Below, piece after piece: positions 6,129 through 7,385 of a stretch of 50,572 nucleotides of DNA (within the stretch, counting starts at the first letter, position 1; each line of letters opens with the position of its first letter). The notes beneath the pieces were generated by a model that had not been told where the DNA came from, searched no databases, and saw only the letters and a list, made by a program, of their open reading frames with translations. Origin of the DNA: Escherichia phage XJA18-XJ-2024; sequence record PV584117.1, one strand, 5' to 3'. The translations under genes and the position numbers were made by a program.

Positions 6129-6157
6129 TTGCAATAAAAGTAAATGCGACATACAAT
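6129..6157 (+). promoter_or_regulatory. sigma70-like promoter (TTGCAA-17-TACAAT)
   Basis: -35 TTGCAA, 17-bp spacer, -10 TACAAT about 30 bp upstream of lipoprotein ATG. Confidence 0.5.
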
Positions 6158-6186
6158 GCAATCACACTAACGACGAGGACACACGA

Positions 6187-6417
6187 ATGAAAAAGTTAAT
6201 CACCATTATCGCCGCTGCGTTCATCCTGACTGGCTGCGCTCAGAATCTTAAGAATGGCGACTGTGTTACTTACGCTTACGGATCTTGCATGATGCGATTC
6301 ATTGACGGTAAGAAAGTACCTGCTGGAGAAGTTGACATGCGATTCAAAGGCCTTTCATCAGACGACAATCAGGGCAACTTTAGCGGTAAGATCTCAGTCA
6401 AAACTAAGGAATGGTAA
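6187..6417 (+). CDS. small lipoprotein, candidate superinfection exclusion protein
   Basis: 76 aa; signal peptide with lipobox LTGC (MKKLITIIAAAFILTGC); sits between tail genes as in receptor-blocking lipoproteins of FhuA-targeting phages. Confidence 0.6.
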   Translation: MKKLITIIAAAFILTGCAQNLKNGDCVTYAYGSCMMRFIDGKKVPAGEVDMRFKGLSSDDNQGNFSGKISVKTKEW

Positions 6418-6419
6418 TT

Positions 6420-7385
6420 ATGGGTGAAGGGATATATGTAAACTACAATGACGGAAGACCAGCAATGCAAATAACGGCAGGGCTTCGCGCACCGTCATTC
6501 TGCGCTAACTTTAATCAGAGGGCACAATCAAACAAGACGTTAACAGTAAATACTCCATTAACTCCTGGATCTCAGGTTGTTGTTGTTTTCACAAAACCTG
6601 TTGATGTTATTGAGGTATTCGACCAGACTCTTGTAATACCAGATCCGTTTTATGCGACGACAGTATCAAGGAATGGAAATAGCGGAGTGATAATTAGAGG
6701 TGATGACGCCCTGAGTGCGTACTCAGGATTACCTCAGTGGGCTGGTGTAATTATGGAAATATTGCCAGTAGGAACAAGAAACGAAGGTTTGCTTGTTGCA
6801 AACTCTACTGACTTCACAGCCATATCAAACGTCGCAAAATTAATGACGTGCCAATATTCAAAGAGAATAACTGTTAATGGAAACATGAAATTGCCAGTTG
6901 GAGGTATACCATTCGCAAGGTGGGACGATCCAAATGTCAGCGTTGGATTTGACGGAACAAACATCACAGTAAGGAATGCATCTTACGGCGGTAGGGATGA
7001 CGTGACTGCCTCTGTTGCTATGGATTTGGTTATATTTAATAACACGCCGCCACGCGGAGGTGACGGAATAACCATGACAAACAAGCAGGGTCAGGTTACT
7101 TTCTCAACTGTAAATAAGCCGTTTGTTTACAACCGCGTAATAAATATAGGAACAGGTGATCAGGATATAGGTAACAGTCTGATTCAGTTATCATACTGCG
7201 GAGCGTTGATTGAGAACAATGGAGGGTATAACCACGTAAGGATGAATGGAATCAGAATGGCTGGAAATAAGATAAGGGTGGCTAAAAACAAAGTTGTTGG
7301 TAACTACTCTCGGCAGCAATTCATTATGCCTAACAGAAATATAGCAATTCAATCTCCTTTGATAGTTCTTCCAAACATGTATTAA
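6420..7385 (+). CDS. hypothetical protein, Gly/Asn/Thr/Val-rich
   Basis: 321 aa; start chosen at second ATG with AAGGA 9 nt upstream; overlaps lipoprotein stop (translational coupling). Confidence 0.5.
   Translation: MGEGIYVNYNDGRPAMQITAGLRAPSFCANFNQRAQSNKTLTVNTPLTPGSQVVVVFTKPVDVIEVFDQTLVIPDPFYATTVSRNGNSGVIIRGDDALSAYSGLPQWAGVIMEILPVGTRNEGLLVANSTDFTAISNVAKLMTCQYSKRITVNGNMKLPVGGIPFARWDDPNVSVGFDGTNITVRNASYGGRDDVTASVAMDLVIFNNTPPRGGDGITMTNKQGQVTFSTVNKPFVYNRVINIGTGDQDIGNSLIQLSYCGALIENNGGYNHVRMNGIRMAGNKIRVAKNKVVGNYSRQQFIMPNRNIAIQSPLIVLPNMY

Follow-up and report, generated by a model that had tools for sequence, protein, structure and literature searches.

Next to the central tail fibre gene of Escherichia phage XJA18-XJ-2024, two genes run against their neighbours, and the question they raise is which receptor on the host they address and what each product does there. 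A host-recognition cassette downstream of gpJ is carried by small siphophages of the Drexlerviridae, Dhillonvirus and Queuovirinae. Judging from homology across the window (the whole 50,572-nucleotide stretch of record PV584117.1), we read the pair, with a probability of about 0.9, as the LptD allele of this cassette, encoding a predicted superinfection-exclusion lipoprotein and a predicted receptor-binding protein (RBP).

Both genes lie on the plus strand, whereas exonuclease VIII, Erf and the J-like gene are all on the minus strand (Table 1), so an earlier reading of the letters by themselves, without database searches (the sequence-only reading), had the orientation right. Its placement of the pair between tail genes is loose: J does adjoin on one side, but the recombination module occupies the other and a tail fibre gene follows only beyond it. 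The 76-residue lipoprotein precursor with its LTGC lipobox (residues 14–17), also described there, was borne out, as was the 321-residue length of the partner. A start at ATG 6420 (MG...) agrees with all homologues, with the SA12KD annotation and with the PDB construct; the mechanically called 324-residue frame from ATG 6411 was ruled out by homologue N-termini and Shine-Dalgarno spacing. Translational coupling, proposed in the same reading, is plausible because the lipoprotein stop (TAA, 6415–6417) and the RBP start are separated by 2 nt and the RBP Shine-Dalgarno, AAGGA, 8 nt 5' of the ATG, lies inside the lipoprotein gene. At the far end, the RBP stop (7385) converges with that of J (7413), with nothing but a common terminator in between. 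The RBP gene thus adjoins the 3' end of a gpJ homologue, the published criterion for a 'bona fide RBP locus', and the order lipoprotein to RBP, convergent on J, is identical in Oekolampad, AugustePiccard and Shfl1. The J-like protein, with Phage_Tail_Tip, FNIII-A_GpJ and Phage-tail_3 domains in Pfam, is the platform that displays the RBP and is treated here as context for the operon.

Table 1. Features of the operon and its surroundings, in window positions.
Feature	Position	Strand	Basis or remark
Lateral tail fibre gene	1034..3379		past the recombination genes relative to the operon
Erf	3873..4553	-	
Exonuclease VIII	4595..5659	-	
Sigma-70-like promoter, TTGCAA-17-TACAAT	6129..6157	+	scan and conservation; activity predicted
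Shine-Dalgarno GAGGA of the lipoprotein, 7 nt 5' of ATG	6175..6179	+	read from sequence; kept in T1 and Shfl1
Lipoprotein ORF, 76-aa precursor	6187..6417	+	ORF list; begins MKKLITIIAAAFILTGC
Signal peptide of the lipoprotein with its lipobox, residues 1-17 (MKKLITIIAAAFILTGC; MKK-LITIIAAAFI-LTGC)	6187..6237	+	BLASTP against T1 Cor
RBP ORF, 321 aa, DUF6453	6420..7385	+	Pfam and phmmer
RBP N-terminal ~28 residues (MGEGIYVNYNDGRPAMQITAGLRAPSF), presumed J tail-tip anchor	6420..6503	+	conservation; role predicted (PMC13035648, PMC12685063)
Bidirectional intrinsic terminator hairpin, common to RBP operon and convergent J	7388..7407	both	terminator scan
J-like central tail fibre / tail tip, 1150 aa	7413..10865	-	PHROG 31 'central tail fiber J'; Pfam; outside the operon

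By homology, the 321-residue protein is predicted to be an LptD-targeting RBP of small siphophages (DUF6453; Rtp44/RBP_Oeko family). The sequence-only reading had seen no recognisable motifs in it and had suggested a profile search against RBP families; that search finds Pfam PF20051 (DUF6453) across residues 7–300 with E = 1.7e-122. Its description as Gly/Asn/Thr-rich is roughly right (N 10.3%, G 10.0%, T 7.2%), although valine is as frequent (10.3%). With phmmer, the protein matches the RBP of phage Oekolampad (PDB 9RPT_C, 9RPW, 9RQI) at E = 1.2e-174; the alignment is gapless, with 257 of 321 residues identical (80%) and 64 different, an agreement with a solved chain close enough to settle the fold. 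The Oekolampad RBP has been purified in soluble form, binds the extracellular face of LptDE and has been solved on it by cryo-EM (PDB 9RPT, 9RPW, 9RQI; PMC12685063). Because the window protein shares 80% identity, end to end, with an RBP solved on LptDE, its receptor is almost certainly LptD/LptDE rather than FhuA, the receptor assumed from the letters alone. The same homology to a known tail-tip RBP upholds one half of the earlier proposal of a receptor-binding or exclusion co-factor and removes the other, for which clear homology to a known tail protein had been named in advance as contrary evidence.

This assignment places the protein in a family whose receptor is well documented. Members of the LptD-RBP family have been defined by >30% identity over >99% coverage (bioRxiv 10.64898/2026.04.02.716166); the window protein qualifies with respect to both Oekolampad (Bas18; 80%, 100% coverage) and AugustePiccard (Bas01; 33%). 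LptD dependence has been shown genetically for seven phages with such a locus (PMC8594841) and for OzMSK (PMC13035648), by experiment for Bas01 (PMC8594841), and also structurally and biochemically (PMC12685063); LptDE binding, or loss of infection on lptD loop mutants, is on record for Bas18, Bas01, Bas02, OzMSK and others (PMC8594841, PMC13035648, PMC12685063). Because some LptD phages require a second protein through the J tip, as Bas01 requires NupG (bioRxiv 10.64898/2026.04.02.716166), LptD may not be the sole requirement for infection here.

Could the 64 substitutions have shifted the specificity of a DUF6453 protein to another outer-membrane protein, and the lipoprotein have followed suit? 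Diversification is concentrated at RBP loci, and DUF6453 relatives are also known from phages whose listed hosts are Klebsiella, Salmonella, Aeromonas and Vibrio. We nevertheless consider such retargeting improbable. Members down to ~33% identity (Bas01, Rtp, OzMSK, Bas18) are all LptD-dependent (PMC8594841, PMC13035648, PMC12685063), so that 80% identity with no indels is well within the LptD-dependent range, and the other listed hosts have a conserved LptD too. Moreover, at the one LptD-contact residue compared, Gln299, which in the Oekolampad RBP bonds to Ser350 of LptD loop EL4 (PMC12685063), the window protein is unchanged.

The N-terminal ~28 residues of the RBP (MGEGIYVNYNDGRPAMQITAGLRAPSF) are the best-conserved stretch among RBPs that are otherwise 33–42% identical. 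M1, G4, I5, N10, D11, G12, R13, M16, I18, T19, G21, R23 and S26 are invariant across RBPs of 33–97% identity, and Citrobacter phage HCF1 has residues 1–34 only in common with the window protein, at 76% identity.

The upstream gene is predicted, again by homology, to encode an Rtp45-family superinfection-exclusion lipoprotein (PF24052). The precursor matches Pfam PF24052 (Phage_lipoprotein) with E = 1.5e-24 and 86.2 bits against a cut-off of 27, and its signal peptide gives a weak match to LPAM_1 as well; cleavage at the lipobox would leave 60 residues with Ala at +2. Against Rtp45 (PDB 9RPS_D), phmmer gives E = 1.1e-9. Cys26 and Cys34 line up with the disulfide pair Cys30/Cys38 of Rtp45, and the VPAGEVD motif is invariant among the homologues; V44, P45, A46, G47, D50, R52 and G55 are invariant in five of them. 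The conserved V44–G55 segment may correspond to a hairpin that inserts into the receptor lumen. Identity is 89% to the Shfl1 lipoprotein, 67% to bas18_0026 (SE_Oeko) and about 41–44% to Rtp45. Rtp45 excludes superinfecting phages and binds LptDE on its periplasmic face (PDB 9RPS, on LptDEM), and exclusion has been demonstrated for Rtp45 alone; expression of SE_Oeko, which is closer to the window lipoprotein, did not succeed in the hands of Dunbar et al. (PMC12685063). With 41–44% identity, the disulfide pair and the VPAGEVD motif in common, the window lipoprotein would be expected to exclude in the manner of Rtp45.

The sequence-only reading had likened this lipoprotein to Cor and Llp, blockers of FhuA, and part of that likeness stands: a homologue of the exclusion lipoprotein Rtp45 does occupy the exact slot of T1 cor, but its mature part is unrelated to Cor. 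A fully FhuA-directed system, in which a Cor/Llp-type blocker is paired with an exclusion co-factor or an FhuA-binding RBP, would suit a Tunavirus, the genus of the FhuA-dependent T1, and would account for the cor slot, the T1 Cor signal peptide and a match to PHROG 1119 ('Cor superinfection exclusion protein'; 5.9e-6). That match, however, covers residues 1–33 only, that is, the signal peptide region. In BLASTP against T1 Cor, residues 2–17 are identical (16/16) and the sequences diverge afterwards, with no convincing similarity past the lipobox Cys; Cor has neither the Cys pair nor the VPAGEVD motif. The control locus of T1 itself holds Cor, ST31 and ST32 in the same slot, all unrelated to the window proteins: neither ST31 nor ST32 matches a Pfam family, and the RBP compared with ST31 gives a BLASTP E of 0.21. 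PDB-wide phmmer searches at E <= 10 returned 9RPT, 9RPS and chance hits and neither Llp nor pb5 of T5, whose complexes with FhuA have entries such as 8A8C (PMC12685063). Finally, the RBP families for FhuA, BtuB, LptD and YncD are mutually unrelated and each is receptor-specific (bioRxiv 10.64898/2026.04.02.716166). After comparison with T1's own locus and with the PDB, we rejected the FhuA reading as very unlikely. Least credible are the database labels, a lysis u-spanin for the lipoprotein (GenBank, for the homologue in phage Chapo) and a non-virion moron for its partner (PHROG 1265, 'membrane protein; moron, auxiliary metabolic gene and host takeover'), which seem to predate the work of 2021–2025 and which we rejected on homology to solved LptDE complexes, since the lipoprotein is homologous to Rtp45, the Oekolampad RBP is soluble when purified and binds the outer face of LptDE (PMC12685063), and the holin, endolysin and Rz-like spanin genes of T1 lie far from this slot.

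The TTGCAA-17-TACAAT element reported earlier is present, but with 9 of 12 consensus positions it is near-consensus and falls short of 'canonical'. Because a consensus scan of the region found promoter-like sites no more often than in shuffles (6 against 6.2 expected), we relied on conservation: the 29-nt element is 100% identical in T1, Shfl1 and SA12KD, and its -35 hexamer is also kept in Oekolampad. This lends comparative support, short of proof, to a candidate promoter, presumably the conserved 'cor-slot' promoter of Tunavirus phages. At the other end, the bidirectional terminator that had been proposed was recovered as a hairpin scored on both strands, with an 8-bp stem containing six GC pairs and folding energies of -16.0 and -15.6 kcal/mol; read on the minus strand it has a good T-run, on the plus strand a weaker one, and SA12KD, Shfl1 and Oekolampad all carry the stem unchanged. 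An Rfam scan of the whole window found no RNA families. Both exact copies of a repeat, CTGTTACAC, are in the intergenic region; its genome-wide enrichment is not significant (9 found against 8.8 expected).

What is new in this locus is that the cassette appears, from alignment to its relatives, to be a chimera of three parts. As far as the lipobox Cys, it agrees with T1 cor in promoter, leader and signal peptide; the Shfl1/SH6 Tunavirus lineage would have supplied the mature lipoprotein together with RBP residues 1 to ~28; and the RBP body would come from a Dhillonvirus-like lineage. At the DNA level, the match to T1 breaks off directly behind the codon for Cys17, at 6238. Nucleotide identity to Shfl1 is 75–80% until about 6500 and then ~35%, and past residue ~28 the RBP body has ~42% protein and about 35–60% nucleotide identity to the Shfl1 type. 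The J-like protein, by comparison, is 95–96% identical to those of Shfl1 and SA12KD and only 37% identical to that of Oekolampad. Three recombination joints are thereby suggested: after the lipobox Cys codon (6238, against T1), at RBP residue ~28 (about 6500, against the Shfl1/SH6 type) and, near 7385, at the terminator. Within the phage collection that was searched, nearly the same lipoprotein (89–100% identical) accompanies either of two RBP alleles, which have only 42% identity between them.

A natural chimera of this build (T1-cor promoter and signal peptide, Shfl1-lineage exclusion domain and RBP anchor, Dhillonvirus-like RBP body), taken together with its consequences for cross-exclusion or escape, is a tentative proposal to which we give slightly less than even odds. 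If the lipoprotein acts on LptD whatever RBP arrives, small siphophages that target LptD would all be excluded, irrespective of family, and T1-like phages could then be re-targeted at the three joints, which would serve as natural, portable break-points. Alternatively, the swap of the RBP body could be an escape from LptD loop mutations or from the exclusion proteins of resident relatives, with self-protection kept.

Under the LptD assignment, both genes would be transcribed from one promoter, the same as that of T1 cor, up to the terminator held in common with J. The lipoprotein would be exported, lipidated at Cys17 and, because it has Ala at +2, probably sorted to the inner leaflet of the outer membrane; the rule by which the +2 residue directs lipoprotein sorting is established. 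Its partner would act as the terminal RBP and be fixed non-covalently, through its N-terminal ~28 residues, to the tip of the J-like fibre. The beta-sandwich body would push loops into the lumen of LptDE, the LPS translocon of the outer membrane, and touch extracellular loops 3–5 and 11 of LptD while the barrel is in an open state, which would commit the phage to DNA ejection; the binding mode is that shown for the 80%-identical Oekolampad protein (PMC12685063) and is presumed to hold here. From the periplasmic side, the lipoprotein would bind LptDE and send its hairpin up the lumen. Because the hairpin would displace EL4, an RBP would be unable to bind, whether it belongs to an incoming phage or to progeny that meet cell debris, and superinfection exclusion would amount to steric displacement.

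The cassette is of a kind already well described, the locus type having been defined in 2021 and the structures solved in 2025, and current understanding is unchanged. The gain is a corrected annotation and a receptor prediction for a T1-like phage, whose closest GenBank relatives still label the two genes 'hypothetical protein', 'membrane protein' or 'u-spanin'. Because the phage should depend on LptD, fhuA (tonA) 'T1-resistant' laboratory strains would be unprotected, as has been reported for OzMSK (PMC13035648). The mapped joints make a small, testable addition to the picture of modular RBP exchange, and they point to places at which an RBP body could be exchanged with tail attachment and the exclusion gene undisturbed.

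Among known systems, the closest counterpart is the bas18_0025 (RBP) and bas18_0026 (lipoprotein) pair of Oekolampad, a Dhillonvirus, which has an equal gene order, equally tight coupling, convergence on a J-like gene and the same two Pfam families (RBP 80% identical and gapless, lipoprotein 67%). It differs in a backbone unrelated at this level (J 37% identical), in a lateral tail fibre gene 5' of the pair where the window has its recombination module, and in the 64 RBP substitutions, and the window lipoprotein bears the signal peptide of T1 Cor. Rtp44/Rtp45 of phage Rtp and the nearly identical pair of AugustePiccard share families, locus and the receptor LptD with the window, and keep lipobox, Cys pair and VPAGEVD, but the RBP is only 33% and the lipoprotein about 41–44% identical; the additional need of Bas01 for NupG through the J tip (bioRxiv 10.64898/2026.04.02.716166) finds no sign here. 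Tunavirus phages of the Shfl1/SH6/Sfin type, with an RBP locus predicted to be LptD-dependent (PMC13035648), have the same backbone (J 95%), promoter, terminator and RBP N-terminus and a lipoprotein of 89–93% identity, and differ in the RBP body after residue ~28 (~42% protein identity), which indicates a probable allele swap inside one receptor class.

T1 cor (ST30) lies in the same slot between recE and J, behind a nearly identical 530-bp intergenic region; promoter, Shine-Dalgarno, ATG and signal peptide correspond, and Cor too is an exclusion lipoprotein according to the T1 record annotation and the PHROG label. In T1, however, the mature lipoprotein is unrelated, the receptor is FhuA, and the unrelated candidate RBP genes ST31 and ST32 are read with J and not with the lipoprotein. 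The pb5/Llp pair of T5 is alike in design: the central fibre ends in a monomeric RBP, and a small periplasmic lipoprotein blocks RBP binding from inside. The tail-proximal part of the RBP is disordered in both RBP–receptor structures (PMC12685063, PMC9586334). Compared by sequence, the T5 and window pairs have no detected similarity, and their targets differ, FhuA being a TonB-dependent transporter and LptDE the LPS translocon. Llp works by long-range allostery, whereas Rtp45, the model for the window lipoprotein, physically displaces EL4 (PMC12685063).

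Escherichia phage XJA18-XJ-2024 is a T1-like phage of the genus Tunavirus (Drexlerviridae), whose nearest relatives are Escherichia phages vB_EcoS_SA12KD and Chapo (93–94% nucleotide identity across 92–93% of the window's first 25 kb); Shigella phages Sfin-4/5/6, phi2457T and pSf-2 are ~91–93% identical to the window. Between its recombination and tail genes lie a lipoprotein gene and the gene for a receptor-binding protein (RBP). The sequence-only reading had described an operon here, and its two same-strand genes, opposing flanks, promoter site and bidirectional terminator are all present and correctly delimited. 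This is confirmed by the open reading frames, the opposite orientation of the neighbours, conservation of the promoter and a two-strand terminator whose stem is unchanged in the other three aligned phages (SA12KD, Shfl1 and the Dhillonvirus Oekolampad, or Bas18). The TAA stop of the lipoprotein gene (6415–6417) is 2 nt from ATG 6420, with an AAGGA motif 8 nt upstream of that ATG, making the proposed translational coupling plausible. A start at ATG 6411 was rejected, as all homologues, the SA12KD annotation and the solved-structure construct begin at the equivalent MG...; ATG 6420, giving 321 residues, is almost certainly the true start. The promoter claim stands in part: promoter-like sites in the operon region are no commoner than in shuffles, so that a 9/12 match is by itself weak evidence, but T1, Shfl1 and SA12KD share the 29-nt element without a change, and the -35 hexamer is kept in Oekolampad too.

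Features of the operon, its flanks and two distant podophage homologues (L005 and L006, stretches of Escherichia phage vB_EcoP_SU10, KM044272, with coordinates within those stretches)
Feature	Position	Strand	Remark
SSB-like ORF	3410..3826	-	opposite to operon
Erf	3873..4553	-	opposite to operon
Exonuclease VIII	4595..5659	-	opposite to operon
Promoter TTGCAA-17-TACAAT	6129-6157	+	9/12 consensus match
Lipoprotein ORF, 76 aa	6187..6417	+	ORF call
RBP ORF, 321 aa	6420..7385	+	start ATG 6420; mechanical start ATG 6411 = 324 aa
Terminator hairpin, 8-bp stem, 6 GC pairs	7388-7407	both	terminator scan; ~-16 kcal/mol each way
J-like tail tip protein, 1150 aa	7413..10865	-	opposite to operon; tail assembly genes next
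SU10_019, 343 aa, annotated 'hypothetical'	L005:2659-3690		directly past tail-needle gene gp18
SU10_0104, 93 aa, lipoprotein	L006:1941-2222		PF24052 match 2.6e-36

The 321-residue protein had been thought to lack recognisable motifs. The profile search suggested at the time corrects this, placing it in Pfam DUF6453 (1.7e-122) and PHROG 1265 (2.6e-120), with the Oekolampad RBP as solved homologue. A single set of solved structures was matched, chain C of PDB 9RPT, 9RPW and 9RQI (E = 1.2e-174), which show that RBP on Shigella flexneri LptDE, the outer-membrane LPS translocon (Dunbar et al., PNAS 2025, PMC12685063). Identity to this chain extends to 257/321 positions (80%) with zero gaps, which fixes the fold; Gln299 of the Oekolampad RBP, bonded to Ser350 of LptD extracellular loop EL4 and the one contact residue compared, is conserved. 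Identity of the window RBP is 97% to SA12KD, 80% to Oekolampad, ~75% to many Dhillonvirus phages, 42% to Shfl1 and Sfin-6, and 33% to AugustePiccard (Bas01). As RBP families are defined by >30% identity at >99% coverage (10.64898/2026.04.02.716166), the comparisons with Bas18 (80%) and Bas01 (33%) place the window protein among the LptD RBPs. Public records call such proteins 'hypothetical protein' or 'membrane protein', and PHROG 1265 is filed under 'moron, auxiliary metabolic gene and host takeover'. Homologues at 76–79% also occur in phages that are much larger or classified differently (Aeromonas phage SD04, 59.6 kb; P-GXEC-L2P5, 88.6 kb; ChristophMerian, 58 kb), and the locus is present in T1-like records named 'Campylobacter phage' A120 and A121, a host assignment that looks doubtful.

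The 76-residue product begins with a classic signal peptide of the lipoprotein type (MKK / LITIIAAAFI / LTG-C17, Ala at +2). It matches the Pfam 'Phage lipoprotein family' PF24052 (86 bits; cut-off 27) and PDB 9RPS chain D (1.1e-9), which is Rtp45, the lipoprotein that phage Rtp uses for superinfection exclusion and whose structure was determined on LptDE-LptM (PMC12685063). The lipid-anchor Cys is conserved, Cys26 and Cys34 align with the Rtp45 disulfide Cys30-Cys38, and the invariant V-P-A-G-x-x-D-x-R-x-x-G stretch is present. Identity is 89–93% to Shfl1, SH6 and Sfin-1, 65–70% to Dhillonvirus proteins (67% to Oekolampad bas18_0026) and ~41–44% to the Rtp45 type. Public annotation of the pair trails the literature; the Chapo record labels the lipoprotein 'u-spanin'.

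Published genetic and structural work already accounts for the function of the operon. In Drexlerviridae, Dhillonvirus, Nonagvirus and Seuratvirus, 'bona fide RBP loci' follow immediately downstream of the gpJ homologue; their allelic variants were assigned to FhuA, BtuB, YncD, LamB and LptD, and lptD loop deletions block seven phages with a common LptD-type module (Maffei et al. 2021, PMC8594841). A 2026 preprint describes four unrelated RBP families at the locus, each specific to FhuA, BtuB, LptD or YncD (10.64898/2026.04.02.716166). Black et al. 2025 (PMC13035648) found phage OzMSK to be LptD-dependent as well and predicted this for Tunavirus SH6. Oekolampad, AugustePiccard and Shfl1 share an identical architecture, a lipoprotein gene closely coupled to the RBP gene that follows it, with both converging on J. 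The Oekolampad RBP binds the open, laterally gated barrel state of LptD through 20 hydrogen bonds, mainly to loops EL3-5 and EL11, and D352Y (EL4) or Y671N (EL11) singly eliminates binding and infection; Rtp45 binds where the outer membrane meets the periplasm, close to strands 5-8 and with LptE and LptM on either side, and its hairpin enters the lumen and shifts EL4 by as much as 20 Å, an arrangement that rules out RBP binding, so that exclusion is by steric displacement, in contrast to the allostery of T5 Llp on FhuA (PMC12685063). Conservation among RBPs maps to the tail-proximal base, which is disordered in the complex (PMC12685063, PMC13035648).

By homology, the window RBP and lipoprotein would act as the Oekolampad RBP and Rtp45 do. 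Ala at +2 should direct the lipoprotein to the outer membrane under the established Lol sorting rule, and the RBP is probably attached to the J tip by its conserved N-terminus of ~28 residues. The predicted receptor is thus LptD rather than the FhuA first proposed, given an RBP 80% identical to one bound to LptDE and no membership of the Cor, pb5 or Llp families. Reading the pair as exclusion and receptor recognition appears right in kind, through PF24052/Rtp45 and the Oekolampad RBP. Under this prediction, fhuA 'T1-resistant' strains would give no protection against the window phage. What our analysis adds is limited to the receptor prediction and the mapped recombination joints.

DNA alignments delimit three sharp boundaries in the cassette. 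Against T1, the 530-bp recE-proximal intergenic region, promoter, Shine-Dalgarno, ATG and signal-peptide codons are ~93–100% identical, and similarity ends directly 3' of the lipobox Cys codon (6238). Shfl1 provides the closest backbone type; alignment with it shows 80–98% identity through the lipoprotein gene and ~80 nt into the RBP gene, a drop to ~30–60% from ~6500 to ~7360 and a recovery at the terminator. Megablast agrees: 70 phage records match the region, only 5 (SA12KD, SA30RD, Chapo, ULIM2 and EF3-1) span the RBP body, and the partial matches listed end at query ~599–605 (window ~6499–6504). The third boundary is at the protein level, where the RBP is closer to Oekolampad than to Shfl1, and the lipoprotein and J are closer to Shfl1; J is 95–96% identical to its Shfl1 and SA12KD counterparts and 37% to that of Oekolampad. 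These boundaries and identities indicate that the RBP body was exchanged horizontally among lineages, joined just behind the conserved N-terminal segment, and that the backbone kept its exclusion gene. The Shfl1 RBP matches DUF6453 (4.7e-126) and SH6 is predicted to use LptD (PMC13035648), so the two RBP alleles both fall within the LptD family. If the lipoprotein acts on the receptor, one lipoprotein serving both alleles is expected, implying putative cross-exclusion among LptD phages.

Two neighbouring segments are also distinctive. The 530-bp divergent intergenic stretch from exonuclease VIII to the lipoprotein gene (5660-6186) is better conserved than the adjacent genes; its identity to T1 and to Shfl1 is 93–100%, and ~80 nt are the same in the three phages. 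Its iteron-like repeats comprise two copies of CAACTGTTACAC (5934 and 5952), a degenerate one at 6095 and inverted copies reading TGTAACAC. The segment also includes a (TA)n tract rich in AT (5965-6020) and both exact CTGTTACAC sites of the entire 50.5-kb window; an Rfam scan matched no RNA family. The strongest consensus promoter hereabouts, TTGACT-16-TATAAT (11/12; 5691-5718, minus strand), faces exonuclease VIII and Erf, and SA12KD has a promoter annotated at the equivalent place. As it points away from the operon, the region is a divergent promoter region, and it may bind a regulator or act as an origin-like element. Near the J C-terminus, a short hypervariable patch (7512-7630, residues ~1078–1117) has 52–62% nucleotide identity even to SA12KD between flanks of >90% (68–76% at the protein level) and differs among phages with the same RBP allele. 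The GpJ C-terminal tip has been marked as specificity-associated, possibly through compatibility with the RBP or through a second receptor, NupG for instance (10.64898/2026.04.02.716166).

Distant homologues of both proteins occur, at separate loci, in Kuravirus/Gordonclarkvirinae podophages (SU10, ECBP2, Bas87, Bas89, Bas93 and others). SU10_019 matches DUF6453 (2.2e-23) and the Oekolampad RBP (4.9e-9); SU10_0104 retains the Cys pair, a KVPSGEIDMR motif and a C-terminal KEW. The text of the SU10 virion paper (PMC9509320) does not mention gp19, and a literature search found no Kuravirus-LptD connection. LptD may be the terminal receptor of these podophages, recognised by an RBP at the needle tip, and they may encode an exclusion protein of the Rtp45 kind.

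The FhuA proposal drew on Cor and Llp, the FhuA-blocking lipoproteins of T1 and T5. In T1 the slot between recE and J carries ST32 and ST31, read with J, and cor (ST30), read against J. Neither ST31 nor ST32 has a Pfam match, and ST31, the one compared directly, gave E = 0.21 against the window RBP in BLASTP. In PHROG, the window lipoprotein matches 'Cor' over residues 1-33 only; BLASTP against T1 Cor finds 16/16 identity over KKLITIIAAAFILTGC and nothing convincing beyond, and T1 Cor lacks both the Cys pair and the VPAGEVD motif of the window lipoprotein. PDB sequence searches with both window proteins at E <= 10 returned no T5 pb5 (the FhuA-binding RBP) or Llp chain. Cor/Llp membership was rejected, since the likeness to Cor ends with the signal peptide, Llp and pb5 are unmatched in those PDB searches and the T1 partner genes differ. 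From these T1 and PDB comparisons, the cassette would work like Cor and Llp and occupies the cor position, yet it lies outside both families and its predicted target is LptD.
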